From the IMG/VR virus record IMGVR_UViG_2711768060_000011: a DNA stretch of 36,364 nucleotides; one strand, written 5' to 3'. Origin of the DNA: a virus. Taxonomy: Duplodnaviria > Heunggongvirae > Uroviricota > Caudoviricetes. The notes under the pieces are model-generated. The model was not told the DNA's origin, made no database searches, and was given only the letters and a program-made list of their open reading frames with translations. A program made the position numbers and the translations under genes. Shown here in pieces: positions 3,189-36,364 of the stretch (positions within the stretch are counted from its first letter, which is position 1; each line of letters begins with the position of its first letter).

Positions 3189-3603
3189 GCGTTATCGCAC
3201 TCCACAGATCATCAAAAGAAATCATTACCGGTCCGTCACGACGCCAGAGAGTGATACTGTTACCCAGTTCATTAATCCCGGTGCGACGGATATCCAGATC
3301 AATACGGGACACCACGCCGTCATCAATCATCCATTGCAGGCATTCGCGGATATAACCCCTTACCGTCTGCACCAGCTGATTGGTCAGTTTGCTGCGCTGA
3401 AGCAGCCACAGTCGGGAGCCGTAACGGTCATTCTGTACCGCAGGCCAGGTATCCCCCCACCATCCCATCGGGACGTCGGCGTTGTCATCAGGCTCCGCCC
3501 GCCGCCAGGTAAACAGGGAAATCACCACGGCGCGGGTCAGCGGATCCAGCGGTGCGCTGGCGCAGGTGCGTTTACCGTTCACCGTCAGCCACAGTTCCAT
3601 CAT
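3175..3603 (-). CDS. baseplate protein, Mu gp46-like
   Basis: 142-aa ORF between the gp45-like spike and J-like genes; overlapping stops and starts indicate coupling. Confidence 0.55.
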   Translation of the reverse strand: MMELWLTVNGKRTCASAPLDPLTRAVVISLFTWRRAEPDDNADVPMGWWGDTWPAVQNDRYGSRLWLLQRSKLTNQLVQTVRGYIRECLQWMIDDGVVSRIDLDIRRTGINELGNSITLWRRDGPVMISFDDLWSAITHGGQ

Positions 3604-4148
3604 GCCTCCATCGCTTTATCAGGTTTGTCGGTGTTACTGCCCTGACCGTTCTCTCTGTGACGATGCCCGTTATAGGCAAGCCGCATCGCTGACATGGTGG
3701 TGCCGCCGGAGTCGCACAGGTCTTTCACCTGTCCTGTCACTTCCAGGTCCATTTCAAAACGTGCTTCAGGTGCATTGCGAAACGTGATCGTTTTACCTGC
3801 ACCATCCACCACGATCCCCTCCCGGGTCAGCGTCACGGACTGCCCCTGATCGTCATAGACCGCCACCTCACCCGTCTGCAGCCCTTTCAGGCGGTAGCGC
3901 CGGTCCGACACCGTAACAACTACCGCATGAGAACGGTCACCATCCGGAAACAACACCACCGCTTCCGCACCGCTGTTTGCCCTTGCGGTAAAACCGTAGG
4001 GTTCAAGATGTTCAACCCCGGCTTTGGGTTCACCGGCAATCAGGGACACATCCACGGTCTGACATTTCGTGGCGGCACTGATGCTTTTCACCACGGCCCG
4101 CCCAATCAGGCCGAGGAGTTGTCGCTGCATGGCTTCAATCGTCCTCAT
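3600..4148 (-). CDS. baseplate assembly protein V / spike (Mu gp45-like)
   Basis: 182-aa ORF downstream of the hub gene with a 1-nt start/stop overlap; gene V-like size and position. Confidence 0.6.
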   Translation of the reverse strand: MRTIEAMQRQLLGLIGRAVVKSISAATKCQTVDVSLIAGEPKAGVEHLEPYGFTARANSGAEAVVLFPDGDRSHAVVVTVSDRRYRLKGLQTGEVAVYDDQGQSVTLTREGIVVDGAGKTITFRNAPEARFEMDLEVTGQVKDLCDSGGTTMSAMRLAYNGHRHRENGQGSNTDKPDKAMEA

Positions 4149-5227
4149 CAGAACGGGTCCTCCTGTACTCTGGCTTTTTTCTTTTTCCGCGCGCCGGGGG
4201 CTTCGGGTTCAGGCAGATAAGCATCAGGTGGGCCGACACGGATTTCCGTCAGGGTGCCGTTCTGGTCCTGAGTAAACGTGACTTCCGAGACAAGCAGTTC
4301 GGTATTGTCGAAACCACAGACCGGATCAAAGACAATCACCCGCTGGTTGGGCTGCCACAGCGTACCGTTACCCTGTCGCCAGCCCTGCACCACATAGGTG
4401 GTTTCATCCGTCCGCGCCGCCCGTTGTCGGGCTTCAAAGTCAGCACGGGCAATACAGCCTGCCCCCGTGGCCTGCCCTGTCTGCCTGATATACATCGGAC
4501 GGTAACGGGAAATAAATGCGTCCTCTGTGCGGGCCCGCAGCGCGGTGGTGGTGGCCTCACCGAAATCATCGTCGTTTCCGGCACGCTGCCCCGCCACCTG
4601 GTAAACAGAAAACCGCTCCCGGATACTCTTCTCCGTATCGCAGGAAAGGATGTTTTCCCCAAGTACCAGCGCAGTATGTGCCCGCGTTGAGCCAATACCG
4701 CCAATCACCAGCCTGCCGTGCGGGTCGTCGTAAGCCAGTGCCTGCTGCTGACCGAGTATTTTGTTGATTACCTCAATCACCGTTTCACCGTGATCAGGCT
4801 GGACGTCAGGAATAACACCCGACGGCGCACCGTTGTTCACCACCTCAATGCCGAAAGGCGCAGCAAGCGCCTGCGCAATCTGTACCAGCGATCGTCCGTT
4901 AAACTGTGTCGGTTTGGCTGCACAGTCAATCAGGTCAGCGGTCAGACTGCGTCCGGCAATACCGGTGCTGACCGAACGGGCATCGTAACGAACGGGCGTC
5001 GCCTCCACCCAGCCGGTGATCACCAGCTCATCACCAATCAGCACCTCCACTTTTGAACCGTTTTTAATGCGCGGCTGAAGCGTGGTGATACCCTCATCTC
5101 CCGGCCACTGGCGGGTGATCTCCACACTGAAATCCCGCGCCAGCCGTTCAATACCGGCACCGATGCGCACCGATGTCCAGCCATTCCACTCCCGGCCATT
5201 TACCCGTAGCGTGACATTGTCGTTCAT
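4148..5227 (-). CDS. baseplate hub protein (phage late control D / Mu P family)
   Basis: 359-aa ORF after the DNA circulation gene, as in Mu N-P; length typical of gpD/Mu P. Confidence 0.65.
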   Translation of the reverse strand: MNDNVTLRVNGREWNGWTSVRIGAGIERLARDFSVEITRQWPGDEGITTLQPRIKNGSKVEVLIGDELVITGWVEATPVRYDARSVSTGIAGRSLTADLIDCAAKPTQFNGRSLVQIAQALAAPFGIEVVNNGAPSGVIPDVQPDHGETVIEVINKILGQQQALAYDDPHGRLVIGGIGSTRAHTALVLGENILSCDTEKSIRERFSVYQVAGQRAGNDDDFGEATTTALRARTEDAFISRYRPMYIRQTGQATGAGCIARADFEARQRAARTDETTYVVQGWRQGNGTLWQPNQRVIVFDPVCGFDNTELLVSEVTFTQDQNGTLTEIRVGPPDAYLPEPEAPGARKKKKARVQEDPF

Positions 5228-26513: not shown

Positions 26514-27007
26514 TAAGCCCCCACGTAATTCCCTGACAGATACCACTCATCACCCGATACAGCGCGCTTGCTGCTTTTCCGTAAACACTGCTCACGACGC
26601 GCCAGAAAATTGTTTCGTTCTGGCTGGGAGTGGCTTTCACGGAATGCCGCCATCCACACCGTTGCAGCACGACGGTATAAGCCCCTGGACTCCAGTTCTT
26701 CCGCCTGGCGGGTCAGGCACAAAATCACCCGGGGATCGTTAGTGCCGACATAGAAATTGCGCACAGGTCTGGTTTCACGAACTGGTTGTGGTTCCGACTC
26801 CTGCGCTCTCTCAGTCAGGCGCGGGAAATGTCTGCGTGTATCTCCTTCACAACGGTGAGCCACACGCCCACTCTGACGTAACTTGCTTGCTGACTGCAGA
26901 ACGCGCTGCCGTGAGTAACCTGCAAAAGCATCCGCAATGTCTCCGGAAGTACACCCCGGATGGGCTTCAATGAATTTCTGAACATCATTCAAAAGACTCA
27001 TAATCAC
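26513..27007 (-). CDS. hypothetical protein coupled to the replication initiator (possibly PerC-like regulator)
   Basis: 164-aa ORF overlapping the O-like gene stop by 4 nt; contains ...AEELESRGLYRRAATVW...; family assignment uncertain. Confidence 0.35.
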   Translation of the reverse strand: MIMSLLNDVQKFIEAHPGCTSGDIADAFAGYSRQRVLQSASKLRQSGRVAHRCEGDTRRHFPRLTERAQESEPQPVRETRPVRNFYVGTNDPRVILCLTRQAEELESRGLYRRAATVWMAAFRESHSQPERNNFLARREQCLRKSSKRAVSGDEWYLSGNYVGA

Positions 27008-27945
27008 CCCCTGAATCCTGCTGGGATCTGGCTGTAGTCCACGTTGTCGTAACTGGCTTTGAAGTACGGGTCTTCGCGTTTTTCGGTGTACGTGCTGACG
27101 GACGGCGATAAGCGCAGGGAAAGCTCATCCCATTTTTCCCGCAGCTTCGACGGGCTGAGCACGTTACGGCACCAGAACGGATCGCGACTGACGCGGCTGT
27201 ACATCTCGCAGATTTGTTTATGAGTACGACCATCCTGCACACACATCAGGCGAATTTCGTTTGCCCAGGCTGTCCAGTTCGGTTCTTTGGGACGAACCAC
27301 CTCGCCGTCACATTCGGCGGCATGCTCGTACAGGGCGATGATTTTTTTCCAGAGCCACTGTGCGCAGGTCAAATCATCCTGCGTCCCCCACTGGCGCTTT
27401 TTAGGGCTGAATACAACCGCATCAGGATGGCGAGTTAAAAAATCCTGTTCATCCGTCTGCGTGTCCGGTTGCGAAGCGTCCGGACGAGAAGGTTTTTTAT
27501 CTGACGGATCATGTTTTGATTTTACTGACGGATCCCCGCCAGATTCTGACGGGTGAAAACCCGCTTTTTTGCCAGATTTCGACGCATCAAATTTTGACGG
27601 GTCAGATTTTGATGCGTCAGATTTTGACGGGTCAGAATCTGACAGTTGAGAAAATGCCGCTGCCTGAAGCTTCGCAACGTTAAGCTGATAAACATTCGAC
27701 GCATTGCGGTTACCCTGGCGACGCGCCTTACGCGTTAACCAGCCTTCTGCTTCCAGCCGTGCGATAGCCGTTCTGACGGTACTCATCCCCGCGCCAATCT
27801 GACGGGCAATGGTTTCAATTGATGGCCAGCACACACCTTCGTCATTACTGAAATCAGCCAGGCGGGCCATAATTGCCACGCTGGATAACTTCATGCCTGA
27901 TGCAGCGCAACCATCCCATACATAGCCGGTTAATTTAGTGCTCAT
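27004..27945 (-). CDS. replication initiation protein (O-like) with internal origin iterons
   Basis: 313-aa ORF; N-terminal HTH (...WPSIETIARQIGAGMSTVRTAIARLEAEGWL); central SK(S/F)D(A/P)SKSD peptide repeats encoded by 15-bp DNA iterons; first gene after the CII-like module. Confidence 0.7.
   Translation of the reverse strand: MSTKLTGYVWDGCAASGMKLSSVAIMARLADFSNDEGVCWPSIETIARQIGAGMSTVRTAIARLEAEGWLTRKARRQGNRNASNVYQLNVAKLQAAAFSQLSDSDPSKSDASKSDPSKFDASKSGKKAGFHPSESGGDPSVKSKHDPSDKKPSRPDASQPDTQTDEQDFLTRHPDAVVFSPKKRQWGTQDDLTCAQWLWKKIIALYEHAAECDGEVVRPKEPNWTAWANEIRLMCVQDGRTHKQICEMYSRVSRDPFWCRNVLSPSKLREKWDELSLRLSPSVSTYTEKREDPYFKASYDNVDYSQIPAGFRG
27498..27645. repeat. iteron array (candidate replication origin) inside the O-like gene
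   Basis: About eight imperfect direct repeats of a ~15-bp unit (consensus near TCAGATTTTGACGGG), four in perfect tandem register at 27589-27645. Confidence 0.6.
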
Positions 27946-27954
27946 GACCGACCT

Positions 27955-28293
27955 CTATTTCCCTGAATTTACGACGAAACTGTTCGAGCGGACTGAAGCA
28001 TTCATGCTCATAACCTTCGCGGAGGTAGATAACCCGTTGTGTTTCCGGCTCCCAACGAATGACTCTGACGAGCACTCCGTAGTGATCTTTGAACCAGCGG
28101 TTAACTTGTCGCAAAGGACTGTCTCCTTCTGCCGGTTGAAATCACCCACAGCCCACTCTGCAAAGCTGTGGGTTACAATTTCCCTGTCACCTGGTACATT
28201 CACTGCATAGCAATATTCCACCTTCGCTTTTCCACCCGGTACAGGAAGCGCAATCAGTTGCGAGCGACGGTAGTGTGTTGTTAAACTGTTCAT
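27955..28293 (-). CDS. hypothetical early protein
   Basis: 112-aa ORF between the CII/YdaT-like and O-like genes. Confidence 0.4.
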
Positions 28294-28880
28294 GCGTTAG
28301 TTTCTCCACAACCAGAAGCAATCGACGCCACGACGCCCGGAGCTGCACACTCGCGGGCGTCATTACTTTCTGAAATGCAAAAAATTTTGTAGACAAGTGC
28401 TGCATGCTCCTGCAGCTTCGAAATTGAGAGATACAGCTCGTCGTTAATTGCTGTCTTCTCATGCGGTTCCACTACGCCGTCTTCGATTGCTGAACGAATC
28501 TGTTTTGAATAACTGCCGATCTGTTCAATGACTTCCAGCAGACGCTGGTTAATATCGGCGTTGTCCACATCCTCGACGTCAGGAAGAGACACAAAGACGC
28601 CATTTGCAGACTGCGCCACAGCATCAGCAATGAAGTGAGTGCCACCAGCACGCTGTAAAACCATTGCCCATCCCAGCGGGAAAATCTGATCGCCATCTGC
28701 ACGAAGGCGGTTGAATAAAGCGTTCTCTGTTACATCCAGCCAGTCAGCGGCTTCAGCGTAACCCCCCGGCAACGCCGCGATAGTTTTTCTGACAGCTTTC
28801 ACGTACCACTCAGGCTGTTTTTCTATTTTCCAGTGATGCTTACCCACGGCTATCTCCTTAAAACTGTGGTTACTTTTCAT
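28290..28880 (-). CDS. CII/YdaT-like phage regulatory protein (putative)
   Basis: ORF 28290..28952; start placed at the internal Met (28880) to limit overlap with cro; immediately downstream of the cro-like gene. Confidence 0.45.
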
Positions 28881-29118
28881 CTGATGAATCTTTAATCTTT
28901 TGAAAAATATCTGGACGTAATTTTTCTTTTGATATGCCAGTGGTCTTTTCAATGAATATCGAGAGCTTTGCAGGGGGACGCTTTTCTCTGTTCAACCAGT
29001 TCCAGACATGTTGTTGCTTTACTAAATGACCGCTGCTGGCTGTGAGCTTCCGAGCCAATTCTGATTGACCACCAGCCAGAGCGATTGCCTCCGATAAGGC
29101 TAATTGCTCAGGTGTCAT
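28870..29118 (-). CDS. Cro/YdaS-like HTH regulator
   Basis: 82-aa ORF divergent from the cI-like repressor; HTH-like segment SELARKLTASSGHLVKQQHVWNWL. Confidence 0.7.
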   Translation of the reverse strand: MTPEQLALSEAIALAGGQSELARKLTASSGHLVKQQHVWNWLNREKRPPAKLSIFIEKTTGISKEKLRPDIFQKIKDSSDEK

Positions 29119-29253: not shown

Positions 29254-29940
29254 GTGAAAACACTGGCAGAACGATTAAAGATAGGTAGAGAGAAAGCTGG
29301 CATGAGCCAAGCTCAACTAGCTGAAAAAATTGGACTTTCACAACAATCTGTAGCCAAAATAGAGAATGGCGAAACTCTACAACCGCGCAAAATTAAAGAA
29401 ATTGCAAAAGTTTTAGGTGTATCACAAAAGTGGTTACAACTTGGTATTGAAGACAACGCATCCATACCTGATCTTGTTGTAAAAGAAGCAGAAAGCACCG
29501 CATTAGACCCCGATATTTTCGTAAACATTCCTGTTTTAGATGTCGAGTTATCGGCAGGTAACGGATGTCTGGCTGAAATAGTTGAATCAGCTATTGACTG
29601 GTTTCCGTTAAGAAGAGCAGATTTGAGAAAATCTGGCGTATGTGCATCTAATGCCAAGATCGTACAAATATGGGGGAACAGTTTATTACCGGTTCTCAAT
29701 AATGGAGATCTTGTTGCCGTTGATATTTCTCAAACCGTTCCTATTCGTGATGGCGATCTTTATGCCGTACGAGATGGTGTATTGCTAAGGGTTAAAATAC
29801 TTATCAACTTACCTGACGGTGGCTTGATTCTTAGAAGCTTCAACAAAGATGAGTACCCAGATGAAATACTCACCTTTGAAGATAGACGAGCCAGAATTCA
29901 TGTTATAGGTAGGGTATTCTGGTCATCGCGAACTTGGTAA
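29254..29940 (+). CDS. cI-like prophage repressor (HTH_XRE plus S24 LexA-type autopeptidase); GTG start
   Basis: N-terminal HTH (MSQAQLAEKIGLSQQSVAKIENGE), Ala-Gly cleavage site (LSAGNG), C-terminal S24-like Ser (GNSLLP) and Lys (LLRVKIL); AGAGGG Shine-Dalgarno before GTG at 29254. Confidence 0.9.
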   Translation: MKTLAERLKIGREKAGMSQAQLAEKIGLSQQSVAKIENGETLQPRKIKEIAKVLGVSQKWLQLGIEDNASIPDLVVKEAESTALDPDIFVNIPVLDVELSAGNGCLAEIVESAIDWFPLRRADLRKSGVCASNAKIVQIWGNSLLPVLNNGDLVAVDISQTVPIRDGDLYAVRDGVLLRVKILINLPDGGLILRSFNKDEYPDEILTFEDRRARIHVIGRVFWSSRTW

Positions 29941-30942
29941 TGCATCGAAAAGCATTTCTTCAGAAATAATTTTAAGTTTTGCACCATTATCATCCCTATA
30001 AGATATAGCCTTTTCGATCTTCCTTCCGTGACTAGAGAATTTCCAATCACGGGAGGAAAGCGTCCCAATTACTAAAAAATCCAACTTTTGAGTAATTCCA
30101 CTACTGATGTTCCCACCAGCATTTTTAATCAAATTTTCAACTACGGCTCTCTTTCCTGCAACAAAAGTGCCTGTAAGACAATAGGTTTTACCCTCTAACT
30201 CTATCGAAGCCCCTACATCAATAGGCAGCCTGGTCGCCAAACCATCCACCACCCCACTTTCCAAGTCACATCCTGTGAAGTCTACTAATGCCTTATGTAG
30301 AGTTAAACTCTCATCTTCAGTAATAACACCATCTTTAAGAATTTCCTTTACAAGTGCATAAAGTTTTTTTCCTGGGTAGTTGTTCTTCAAAGCTCCATTT
30401 TGCTCAAGCCACCAATTAAGATATCTTATTTCTTCTTGAGTTAAGTTCCGATCAGCAATTAATCCTTTACATAGTCCATTAAGTAAATGGACATCTACAT
30501 CCTTGGAGTAAAAATCAATTTCAGGGATATCAAGAATTTCCCTCTGTATTTGGAGAAGGCTATTTTTAAGGTCATCACGTTCTTCTGATGTGATTATTCC
30601 ATCCGCAAGAATATCCGACACCCGAGCAGATAGACTTTTTATAACTCCATTATTGATAATCTGCTTTGCTTCAAGTAACCATGTATCTAAGTAAAGAACC
30701 TCCTCTTCACGGACAACTCCATCTGCAATGATTCCATCAATGATGCTAATCAAGTTAGCAAATAACTTGTCCCGGTTTCGTGTAATTAAAAGCGTAAAGC
30801 GCGTCTTCCATACAACCTCCTTTTTTTGATAATCCTTGCGCTCCTTGGCTACTCGTTCAAACCACATAAAGTTGTTGGCAACATTCAAAACCACAACTAA
30901 ATTACAACTTAAAGGTGTTAAGACAACGAACAGGCAGGACAC
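29923..30942 (-). CDS. repeat-containing protein with C-terminal BRCT domain; likely true start at ATG 30867
   Basis: C-terminal ~90 aa (KTYCLTGTFVAGKRAVVENLIKNAGGNISSGITQKLDFLVIGT...) resembles the LigA-type BRCT domain; four ~45-aa repeats sharing ...L.DG.IT.EE...L...L; the first codon at 30942 is GTG and the N-terminal extension overlaps operator-like motifs. Confidence 0.6.
   Translation of the reverse strand: MSCLFVVLTPLSCNLVVVLNVANNFMWFERVAKERKDYQKKEVVWKTRFTLLITRNRDKLFANLISIIDGIIADGVVREEEVLYLDTWLLEAKQIINNGVIKSLSARVSDILADGIITSEERDDLKNSLLQIQREILDIPEIDFYSKDVDVHLLNGLCKGLIADRNLTQEEIRYLNWWLEQNGALKNNYPGKKLYALVKEILKDGVITEDESLTLHKALVDFTGCDLESGVVDGLATRLPIDVGASIELEGKTYCLTGTFVAGKRAVVENLIKNAGGNISSGITQKLDFLVIGTLSSRDWKFSSHGRKIEKAISYRDDNGAKLKIISEEMLFDALPSSR
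30866..30930. promoter_or_regulatory. OL-like operator cluster upstream of the plus-strand early operon
   Basis: Same motif as the right operator region: AAAGTTGTTGG (30868-30878), CCACAACTAA and ATTACAACTT (30891-30910). Confidence 0.5.
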
Positions 30943-31016: not shown

Positions 31017-31325
31017 ATGAATGAGCAGGATTTGAAGCATGTGATCGCATTGTTGCTGGAAGACGCTAAACGTTTGCAGCAGATAGAGCCAAATGCAGGC
31101 ACTGAGGCCCGTATTTTGTTAGCAAAACAGGCATTAAAGACTTGCGGGGCGCAAGATCCTGATCGAACCAAGTTCATGAATTTCATGGCTAACACGATCA
31201 CCCCCCTGCCATGCAATGGAGAGAGGGTGAGCCGTGTTTATCACGACACAATGGTTAAGGCATTAAGAATCGAGCTTGATGGGCTTAGGCGTAAGATCGT
31301 GATGAACAAAATCGTTGCCAACTAA
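31017..31325 (+). CDS. hypothetical early protein (first gene of the plus-strand early operon)
   Basis: 102-aa ORF with GGAGAG Shine-Dalgarno, starting ~90 bp after the OL-like operator cluster. Confidence 0.4.
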   Translation: MNEQDLKHVIALLLEDAKRLQQIEPNAGTEARILLAKQALKTCGAQDPDRTKFMNFMANTITPLPCNGERVSRVYHDTMVKALRIELDGLRRKIVMNKIVAN

Positions 31326-31604
31326 GGAAGCAGACGGAAGTAAGCATGCGCTTTGTTCAAATTTGCAGACAAATATATTTGCGTCAACACCAGCACTGTT
31401 AGCAATGGAAAAAGTTTGATCAAGGATTTGTTGGCAGTTCATTGTGCTTTTGAGGATATATCCCTCTGGAATCAGTCTGCAGCAGCTATCGTCAGACTCT
31501 TTGATTGTTTTCTGGTACAGAAAGTTAAGCATTAATTCTTCAAATTTTTTGGTCTGTTCGGCTGTTGCTTCAAACAGACGAACGTGAACATAAAACTGGT
31601 TCAT
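31263..31604 (-). CDS. hypothetical protein (antisense to the early operon; coding status uncertain)
   Basis: ORF 31263..31640 with internal ATG at 31604 preceded by AGGAA; AT-rich; 3' end overlaps the plus-strand 102-aa ORF by 63 nt. Confidence 0.25.
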   Translation of the reverse strand: MNQFYVHVRLFEATAEQTKKFEELMLNFLYQKTIKESDDSCCRLIPEGYILKSTMNCQQILDQTFSIANSAGVDANIFVCKFEQSACLLPSASLVGNDFVHHDLTPKPIKLDS

Positions 31605-31883
31605 TAGGTTTCCTTGCTGGCTGTGTGAGAACTCCAGCATACCACCGAGCCTGAAGTGGTGAAAAGACAGGCAATAGTTTCATTGCTGTGTGTAGTCTTG
31701 GCGGTACCAGCTTGTACCCTTGCTTCCGGCTGGTACCGTCCTTTTTACAAAACAGAGAAGAGCATCACCGGACGACGGGCTCATAACCCAATCCATCCGG
31801 GCGGCGGCCACCACAGGTGTTCTTCTCTGTTTTGTGGAGAAACTAATAGGCCTTGCAGGGTCGATATGATGAGGAGCAGCAAA

Positions 31884-35311: not shown

Positions 35312-36364
35312 ATGAATACAAATGTAGGGCAGATCACATTAATTGATCTAATTTCAATGCTTGAGAGAAAAGAACTAATAATTAACAAGGATTATCAGCG
35401 CGGAAATGGAATATGGCCACCATTTGCAAAGAGTTATTTCATAGACACTATTCTAGAAAATTATCCTTTCCCCAAAATATATTTATATCAAGCATTTGAC
35501 AGGACAAACGAAAGGCCAATTAAAGAAATTGTTGATGGCCAGCAACGAGTAACAACTCTCGTTGATTTTTATAAAAACAAATTTGCACTTACTTCGGCAT
35601 CGAAGAAGTATTCTGGCATGTATTTTAATGATTTGCCCGATGATGCAAAAAGATGTTTTATTAGTTATCAAGTTGAAACATCCACAGTTTATTCAGCAAG
35701 CAGGGCTGAATTACTCGAAATGTTTAGACGAATGAATGCTTATACATCTCCACTAACATCAGCAGAAAAACGGCATGCTACTTTTCAAGGTGCATTTAAG
35801 TGGTATATCGTTGAAAAAGCAGATACCCACGCTGAGCTTTTAGAGATTTATAATATATTGTCACCCAAAATATTAGCCAGAATGGGTGATGCAGAATTTA
35901 TCTCAGATATGGCAATACTCATTGATAGAGGGCTTTGTTCAAAGTCGGCACCTGCAACCGAAGCTATTTATAAAAAATACGATGATGATTTTCCTTTAGA
36001 GAATATCTATAACGAGAGAATTGATTATTTCTTCAATTTATTGGCGGAAGATTTTTCCGAATTACGTAATTCATTTATGATGAAATCGTATGTTGTTCAC
36101 TCATTATTTTGTGCTATTACCGCATTAAAATTTGGTTTCCCCGGAAGTGATGAACTTGAAAATGAACTCGGTTTCACGGCTAACCCAAACTTTGATGTAA
36201 ATCCTTCCCGTGTAATTCCGATTCTCTTAGAGATGGCTGATGCCCATGAAATTCAGGACGAAGATGGCCCTTATGCAGCCTATGTAACAAGTTGTTTATC
36301 ATCAACAACCAAGCTACCACAACGAACCACGCGCACAAAAGAACTGATTAAAGCATTCTTATGA
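35312..36364 (+). CDS. DUF262 (GmrSD N-terminal / ParB-like) domain protein, stand-alone
   Basis: 350-aa AT-rich ORF with AGGAGA Shine-Dalgarno; N-terminal DYQRGNGIW and DGQQR motifs diagnostic of DUF262; no HNH/DUF1524 motif seen in the C-terminal half; stop is the last codon of the window. Confidence 0.75.
   Translation: MNTNVGQITLIDLISMLERKELIINKDYQRGNGIWPPFAKSYFIDTILENYPFPKIYLYQAFDRTNERPIKEIVDGQQRVTTLVDFYKNKFALTSASKKYSGMYFNDLPDDAKRCFISYQVETSTVYSASRAELLEMFRRMNAYTSPLTSAEKRHATFQGAFKWYIVEKADTHAELLEIYNILSPKILARMGDAEFISDMAILIDRGLCSKSAPATEAIYKKYDDDFPLENIYNERIDYFFNLLAEDFSELRNSFMMKSYVVHSLFCAITALKFGFPGSDELENELGFTANPNFDVNPSRVIPILLEMADAHEIQDEDGPYAAYVTSCLSSTTKLPQRTTRTKELIKAFL

Follow-up and report, generated by a model that had tools for sequence, protein, structure and literature searches.

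A TerB-like and BRCT domain protein encoded beside the cI repressor of an e14-like prophage and its relatives in the lysogeny modules of temperate phages

The window analyzed here, the whole 36,364-nucleotide (nt) stretch of the Caudoviricetes record IMGVR_UViG_2711768060_000011 from IMG/VR, was a lambdoid, e14/CPS-53-like prophage; a near-identical copy adjoins icd in Escherichia coli O91 RM7190. In its immunity region, the interval separating cI from the leftward early operon's promoter contained a minus-strand open reading frame (ORF) for a protein with a C-terminal BRCT domain, which is the subject of this work (Table 1). The ORF was real, as was its convergence with a cI-like repressor gene, both of which had been reported in an initial annotation made from the sequence alone; the repressor carried a helix-turn-helix (HTH) domain and an S24 peptidase domain. 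The two coding sequences overlapped by 18 nt at their 3' ends (29923-29940). All 86 related loci compared, the majority of them IMG/VR prophages of Escherichia, Citrobacter, Serratia, Klebsiella, and other hosts, showed the same convergent arrangement with a homologous cI and a 3' overlap of 6–18 nt. The initial annotation had also singled out the gene as poor in G+C. Its G+C fraction was indeed 0.38, against a window average of 0.51. However, cI (0.40) and cro (0.42) were equally AT-rich; thus, AT-richness belongs to the entire immunity module and not to the BRCT gene alone.

The C-terminal ~90 amino acids, read as a BRCT domain from the outset, matched Pfam PF00533 above its cutoff (28.7 bits versus 21.3, E 1.5e-6), and 64 of 66 diverse relatives matched it too. 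These 66 members were at 26–45% identity. An AlphaFold model built from a diverse alignment had a predicted local distance difference test score (pLDDT) of 91.7 and a predicted template modeling score (pTM) of 0.86, and replaced an earlier model from close homologues with a pLDDT of 69.6. It predicted the alpha/beta fold of a BRCT domain, in which helices flank a parallel sheet, and this fold could be superposed on BRCT domains of known structure. Almost all of the PDB and BFVD fold matches listed were BRCT domains, and no match to the helical part of the protein was among those listed. In a comparison of the family profile with the PDB, the BRCT domains of RFC1, Rad4, and LigA were matched, that of RFC1 being the best sequence match. 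In RFC1, the T-G, R, and K residues hold the 5'-phosphate at a DNA end (PDB 2k7f). Residues T214, G215, R222, and K265 of the family aligned with them and were conserved in at least 90% of the 66 members, and the phosphate pocket of the RFC1/LigA class (T/S-G after strand 1, Arg in helix 1, and Lys in helix 2) was complete. Judged by these alignments and the predicted fold, the domain belongs to the DNA-end-binding RFC1/LigA class and has an intact pocket.

The NCBIfam LigA and epsilon-BRCT models matched the BRCT region only and far under their cutoffs (20–28 bits versus 369–1051 for LigA). Neither the adenylation domain nor the OB fold, zinc finger, or helix-hairpin-helix (HhH) domains of LigA were found by Pfam in the window protein, so an identity as NAD-dependent DNA ligase was rejected: only the BRCT part matched. 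No catalytic or enzymatic domain was found in the protein. Labels such as 'NAD-dependent DNA ligase' or 'DNA polymerase' are spread among the homologues (P0012, P0042, P0056, kp3 of phage Kappa, and a protein of phage phi1); these labels, borne by many members, are propagated misannotations, as only the BRCT domain matches.

The N-terminal part was made of four repeats, as the initial annotation had described, arranged as (A-B)x2. Residues 9–97 and 104–185 were homologous (hhalign probability 99.7%, E 5e-27). Both halves are read as four-helix domains made of two related helix-loop-helix units. Units A and B were more distant from each other (E 1e-4 to 5e-7) than half from half, from which the (A-B)x2 pattern follows. 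Every unit bore a D-x6-E motif, with E38 and E128 invariant. Of the two resemblances suggested earlier, to EF-hand or TerB loops, that to TerB was favored over that to EF-hand: among the 66 diverse members, Pfam TerB matched 15 (best E 9.5e-5), DUF533 matched 6, and EF-hand_5 matched 4. TerB, the N-terminal domain of DjlA, and DUF533 resemble the repeats in having helix-loop-helix units with a (A)DG-x5-E acidic motif. Pfam TerB had no match in the window protein itself, and the hhalign comparison with E. coli DjlA was marginal, with a weak score. The label 'TerB-like' for the helical domains is therefore reasonable but not proven.

The ATG at 30867, regarded initially as the probable start of the gene, proved to be wrong. 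Relatives in E. coli, found in 47 of 5426 complete genomes, are annotated as a 296-amino acid 'BRCT domain-containing protein', and WP_000389078 was placed by PGAP at the equivalent site in E. coli RM7190. The 120 listed homologues were 292–300 amino acids long, except for a few truncated or extended calls, and covered only ~90% of the 314-amino acid model that begins at 30867. Their N-terminus, MEDALYAFNYTQNRDK..., followed the pattern M-E/D-D-x-L-Y-x-F-N-Y-x-x-N-R-D-K with F8, Y10, N13, and R14 invariant. The conserved start of the family corresponded to the ATG at window position 30811, 4 nt past a perfect AAGGAGG, while no Shine-Dalgarno sequence preceded the ATG at 30867.

The frame from this conserved N-terminus was not intact in the window copy. 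The string ACACAGAAC of the relatives was replaced in the window by ACGAAAC, a net loss of 2 bp, which hits codon 12 and ends the canonical frame after 18 codons. In a pairwise alignment with the RM7190 locus (L001), the sole differences in ~1.4 kb were at this site (30777-30779); the canonical string was present in 29 fetched, otherwise near-identical loci, and the string of the window in none of them. Because the change is not a homopolymer slip, it looks like a genuine mutation, although an assembly error is also possible. The ORF starting at 30867 is probably a by-product of the frameshift, its ATG happening to restore the frame. If the sequence is accurate, the window copy is most likely inactive.

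An exhaustive search at E ≤ 1e-3 showed that the family comprised 2854 clusters at 50% identity, in three shapes. The first, of ~295 amino acids, had the (A-B)x2 repeats and the BRCT domain; the second, of ~210 amino acids, had a single A-B pair and the BRCT domain, equaling the domain 2 half plus BRCT (hereafter the short form); and the third included fusions to DEDDh exonucleases, to HhH and BRCT domains, and to a 2042-amino acid superfamily 1 (SF1) helicase with MTES_1575 endonuclease and DUF3320 domains. The architecture, which the initial annotation had not recognized as that of a described phage-defence or exclusion protein, was already catalogued as PHROG 3989 (E 2e-125 over 290 of 296 positions), as the NCBI 'BRCT domain-containing protein', and as orf2 of Vibrio phage K139; what stood was that the literature searched yielded no function for it. 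A match in an integron-defence preprint was false, 'BRiCs' having been taken for 'BRCT', and orf2 was never tested in the 919TP paper. When the gene was compared by megablast with 50,697 phage genomes, there was no match, and relatives came from the protein search alone. By tblastn, the family was detected in only 17 of the 50,697 phage records, which were prophage-type phages with repressor or integrase genes.

The family itself being known, the new result is its linkage to repressors across phage lineages together with its association with nucleases and defence genes. In Vibrio phage K139, orf2 lies within the annotated lysogenic operon (PL followed by cI-orf2-glo-int). In the Pseudomonas D3-like phages phi1 and Marin, cro points away from cI and the short form lies on the same strand as cI, directly downstream of it. 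It had been proposed that the gene occupies the slot held in lambda by rexAB, and this idea was strengthened by the K139, phi1, and Marin homologues, all co-directional with cI and directly downstream of it. In Stutzerimonas phage PG1, an S24 repressor was followed by one ORF and then the short form. In an Aeromonas P2-like prophage, the order was S24 repressor, a 206-amino acid short form, a 296-amino acid long form, and int; such tandem paralogues were observed at 3362-4891 of loci L098/L099, in an Aeromonas caviae P2-like prophage between the S24 repressor and the integrase. An Oceanimonas P2-like prophage carried an S24 repressor, the BRCT gene, NsnA-like GmrSD and HEPN genes, and int; Kosakonia and Enterobacter P2-like prophages carried a short HTH repressor, one ORF, the BRCT gene, and int; and a Pantoea prophage carried a 186-type CI, the BRCT gene, and int.

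Thus, three repressor classes adjoin members of the family, two of which, the 186-type CI and the short HTH repressor, are without the S24 autocleavage domain. The idea that the gene works specifically with the autocleavage of S24 repressors was rejected, since the position is kept beside these two classes. Because the repressor classes differ, the common factor, as read from gene order, is the lysogeny operon and not one repressor chemistry.

The gene did not behave as a core component of these modules. The cI type of the window was carried by 72 E. coli genomes, 24 of them at ~83% nucleotide identity. In the one example examined among these 24 (L095, E. coli 20Ec-P-124, 4310-4470), ~240 codons (~720 bp) of the BRCT gene were lost by a clean internal deletion, while cI, cro, OL/pL, and the Shine-Dalgarno sequence, start, and last 47 codons of the BRCT gene were retained. 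Since the gene is deleted in this prophage and frameshifted in the window, the genomes compared indicate that it is accessory and dispensable, not core to the switch or to replication. An essential part in the cI/cro switch was rejected, as the related module survives with the gene deleted. The concern that the homologues might be conserved core replication or recombination genes, raised initially as a ground for abandoning a role in exclusion, was not borne out either.

The initial annotation had further noted operator-like motifs upstream of the gene and suggested that its expression might be coupled to the repressor. The motifs were real: AAGTTGTWA occurred in five copies versus 0.48 expected, three of them between cI and cro and another at 30902-30910; near-copies lay at 30869 and 30912. 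In an alignment of 12 loci, whose proteins were 68–100% identical to the E. coli protein, non-coding blocks upstream of the BRCT gene, including the operator cluster, were invariant. By sequence and position, the motifs are assigned as the OL/pL operators, overlapping a conserved divergent pL-like promoter. This promoter is directed away from the BRCT gene; the motifs therefore do not show that the gene is controlled by the repressor, and this part of the suggestion was not sustained. A candidate promoter on the minus strand was indicated by the conserved non-coding blocks GTGGTTTGA and TGnAAGGAT, and an operator half-site would lie at about -50 to -44 relative to it. This geometry resembles that of lambda cI at OR2 activating PRM, and a comparable arrangement may operate here. 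If the minus-strand promoter is real, transcription from it would begin past the ATG at 30867, which would be a further reason to drop that start.

The coding overlap of 6–18 nt between the BRCT gene and cI left no space for terminators in the 86 loci and the window. The transcripts of the two genes must therefore overlap, so antisense effects or transcriptional interference with cI are possible. This bears on an explanation in which the gene tunes lysogeny or induction, either through a protein that binds host nicks or gap junctions and modulates the DNA-damage signal (for example, RecA loading) or through a convergent transcript that hinders cI; the gene would then be part of the switch rather than a defence factor. 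Besides the overlap, such a role would be in keeping with the constant position next to the repressor, with the operators beside a conserved candidate promoter upstream, and with the high conservation of the protein, which suits contact with conserved host machinery. However, the presence of the family beside three unrelated repressor classes, two of them without S24, makes a mechanism tied to RecA-mediated cleavage unlikely; the related cI/cro module persists without the gene in L095; and neither the nuclease fusions nor the defence-island contexts outside prophages would be explained. We consider a tuning role unlikely.

These nuclease and defence associations were as follows. The fusion of the family with a DEDDh exonuclease is the PADLOC candidate system PDC-S48. 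The window protein matched only profile positions 238–377 of 411, the non-catalytic C-terminal two-fifths (E 1.3e-7 to 2.2e-7); it thus had the helical linker and C-terminal BRCT domain of PDC-S48, while the N-terminal DEDDh exonuclease was absent, the Pfam RNase_T domain not being found in the window protein. On a metagenome scaffold (L110, 156-5088), a tight operon encoded a DEDDh exonuclease of 210 amino acids, a TerB-BRCT protein of 293 amino acids, and an Ion_trans channel of 233 amino acids; the exonuclease gene lay 12 nt upstream and the channel gene 4 nt downstream of the TerB-BRCT gene. Upstream of the operon were genes for an LmuB-like ATPase and a 1980-amino acid DUF4011 helicase/MTES_1575 nuclease, with an integrase nearby. 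The operon is a split form of PDC-S48 with a possible membrane effector, and it shows that the nuclease may come as a polypeptide of its own. In Sulfurimonas phage SNW-1, the short form was followed by a thermonuclease gene. Outside prophages, the neighbors of family members included Septu PtuA/PtuB, AbiEi/AbiEii, an OLD-type ATPase-Toprim protein, an LmuB-like SMC ATPase, and a DUF3375 fragment. The role in defence or exclusion suggested by the initial annotation thus received associative support from the kinship to PDC-S48 and from neighbors such as Septu, AbiE, NsnA, and the OLD-type ATPase.

The same kinship could be read in the opposite sense. The protein equals the targeting module of proteins that carry a nuclease but has no nuclease itself, its 5'-phosphate pocket is conserved, and in the e14-like group its gene runs in the direction of the lytic pR operon, opposite to cI; it might therefore serve counter-defence or self-protection, shielding phage ends in the manner of Gam or acting as a decoy against host DEDDh-BRCT systems similar to PDC-S48. 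We find this decidedly improbable. In K139, phi1, Marin, and the P2-like prophages, the gene is in the repressor/integrase operon and so has a lysogenic and not an early lytic position, no virulent phage carried the family in the tblastn search of 50,697 records, and the chromosomal copies adjoin defence genes and not anti-defence genes.

Our preferred reading, a proposal that we hold almost as readily as we doubt it, is that the gene is an accessory component of the lysogeny and immunity module whose product would sense DNA ends or nicks, or serve as an adaptor at them, in exclusion or defence. The protein would be made in the lysogen, and nicks, gap junctions, or ends bearing a 5'-phosphate would be recognized by its BRCT domain. 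Such ends would be exposed by incoming or replicating foreign phage DNA and not by the integrated prophage. Bound protein might occlude the ends and block end joining or circularization, for example the ligation of cos by LigA; alternatively, it might recruit a nuclease in trans. In either case, superinfecting phages would be excluded or defended against. A bolder version, that the catalytically inert TerB-BRCT protein founds a new class of immunity factor in lambdoid, P2-like, and D3-like phages, which binds 5'-phosphate ends or cos nicks of incoming phage DNA and blocks circularization or hands the ends to a host DEDDh exonuclease, seems doubtful to us; such a protein would be the first antiviral sensor of bacteria to be based on a BRCT domain.

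Several observations weigh against the sensor or adaptor role. In three ordinary chromosomal contexts, one of them syntenic across assemblies, phage or defence genes were not nearby, and a cellular role of the family in DNA metabolism is possible because some members sit in such contexts. Proteins combining DEDDh and BRCT domains include a housekeeping proofreader, mycobacterial DnaQ. PDC-S48 is a candidate only, and the window protein matches solely its non-catalytic part. Expression in the lysogen is made less certain by the antiparallel orientation of the BRCT gene and cI in the e14-like group, and the promoter scan, at its thresholds, gave no minus-strand promoter. Mean column identity was 78% from E. 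coli to Plesiomonas, which is unusual for a protein engaged in an arms race. Identities of the BRCT protein and cI co-varied across the 86 loci (r = 0.87), but this was not taken to indicate interaction, because co-inheritance with the immunity type is expected of every gene situated between OL and OR. No functional study of the family with two TerB-like domains and a BRCT domain was found in the full-text literature searched.

The chromosomal copies could also mean that the gene is a cellular DNA-repair adaptor carried as cargo, which would bring ligase or exonucleases to nicks and give the lysogen a repair or stress benefit unrelated to phages. The syntenic copies without phage context, the kinship to DnaQ-type DEDDh+BRCT proteins, and the general knowledge that TerB-like domains belong to stress-response proteins all fit this explanation. 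A generic repair factor would not be expected to be captured repeatedly at one position beside the repressors of unrelated phages; moreover, the gene is readily lost from prophages, and many of its contexts are of the defence type. We judge a repair cargo distinctly unlikely.

The genes flanking the immunity region were less constant than the BRCT gene and cI: cII, the 102-amino acid ORF (orf102), ymfI, and yfdQ varied or were missing across the related loci. Both orf102 and ymfI were missing from most of them, and these two genes were rejected as partners, as most related loci carry the BRCT gene without them. Another pair of convergent genes with overlapping ends consisted of ymfI and the ymfJ-like orf102, the former covering 63 nt at the 3' end of the latter (31263-31325). 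At the prophage end nearest to icd, the lambda-type integrase gene was immediately followed by a plus-strand frame at 35312-36364 that continues past the end of the window and encodes a GmrSD_N/DUF262 protein. It matched PADLOC NsnA (8.5e-32) and PD-T4-2_A (9.5e-14), and the gene is probably defence cargo; in E. coli RM7190, a 216-amino acid hypothetical gene comes after it. A replication-initiator-like HTH protein (27004-27945, minus strand) contained the low-complexity run SDSDPSKSDASKSDPSKFDASKSG. An Rfam scan of the window found no RNA family.

Table 1. Position of the BRCT gene, its parts, and neighboring features in the window (position 1 is the first letter of the window).
Feature	Position	Strand	Remarks
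ORF under study	29923-30942	-	339 codons; contains ATG at 30867
TerB-like x2 + BRCT gene, canonical extent	29923-30811	-	296 codons in relatives; interrupted in the window
Shine-Dalgarno sequence AAGGAGG	30816-30822	-	4 nt upstream of canonical ATG; conserved in 12 diverged loci
Frameshift site	30777-30780	-	relatives ...TAC ACA CAG AAC CGG...; window ...TAC ACG AAA CCG G...
Product of canonical start in the window	30755-30811	-	18-residue peptide MEDALYAFNYTKPGQVIC, then stop (translation)
Earlier gene model, 314-codon ORF in another frame	29923-30867	-	without Shine-Dalgarno sequence; first 30 residues unrelated to the family
TerB-like helical domain 1, units A1-B1, D-x6-E motifs	30523-30777	-	family residues 13-97; hhalign, AlphaFold helices, Pfam TerB in relatives
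TerB-like helical domain 2, units A2-B2	30259-30504	-	family residues 104-185; hhalign, AlphaFold, Pfam TerB in relatives
BRCT domain	29944-30198	-	family residues 206-290; conserved T214, G215, R222, K265
Operator cluster, half-site AAGTTGT/ACAACTT, probable OL	30864-30921		shared with the cI/cro intergenic region
pL-like promoter TTGGCA-17-TAAATT (TTGACA in most relatives)	30875-30903	+	points away from the BRCT gene, toward orf102/yfdPQR/xis/int
Candidate BRCT-gene promoter: TTGAAC, 17 nt, (T/C)GC-AAGGAT extended -10	30832-30860	-	conservation only
cII/YmfL-like gene	28290-28952	-	
cro-like gene	28870-29118	-	
cI-like repressor gene, HTH_3 + Peptidase_S24	29254-29940	+	convergent with the BRCT gene
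102-amino acid ORF, ymfJ-like, PHROG 12693	31017-31325	+	
ymfI	31263-31640	-	NCBIfam YmfI_phage, 4.8e-48
yfdP, yfdQ, yfdR, xis, int	downstream	+	

BRCT domains are central to DNA-damage signaling in eukaryotes; in bacterial antiviral immunity, no role has to our knowledge been established for them. The family is kept beside the repressor by temperate phages from at least four lineages, and its module has repeatedly been joined to nucleases. If the protein is an end-sensing exclusion factor, it would represent a new type of sensor for prophage-encoded defence, and a function would be gained for K139 orf2 and for hundreds of genes labeled 'BRCT domain-containing protein' or 'NAD-dependent DNA ligase'. 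With the gene model corrected and the window copy flagged as probably dead, an intact allele is needed for functional work.

Among known systems, BstA of Salmonella BTP1, likewise encoded beside a prophage repressor, is not known to resemble the window protein in sequence or domains, the KilA-N domain being absent from the latter. Lambda RexAB is similar in the kind of position, between cI and OL/pL, and in being accessory and dispensable. However, neither sequence nor domains are similar; the window gene is single, lies on the strand opposite to cI, and encodes a predicted soluble protein of helical and BRCT domains without the membrane channel of RexB; the two components, multi-pass channel, and co-transcription with cI that characterize RexAB were not found here, and PADLOC gave no homology. 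The BRCT domains of RFC1 (p140) and LigA have the same fold and the same T-G...R...K residues, while the clamp-loader and ligase domains are missing from the window protein. PDC-S48, a candidate that is not known to have been tested, shares with proteins of the NCBIfam PRK06195 type, mycobacterial DnaQ, and the window protein a module of helical linker and C-terminal BRCT domain; in place of the exonuclease, the window protein has a second TerB-like domain. Orf2 of K139 (NP_536630; kp3 in phage Kappa) differs from the window gene in being co-directional with cI and in belonging to a P2-like phage, whereas the window gene converges on cI and belongs to a lambdoid e14-like prophage. Exclusion by K139 has reportedly been attributed to Glo, and we know of no function assigned to orf2. 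Orf2 nevertheless belongs to the same family and has the same architecture as the window protein (33% identity over 95% of the length, E 7e-39), and its gene likewise lies directly beside the prophage repressor in the lysogeny module.

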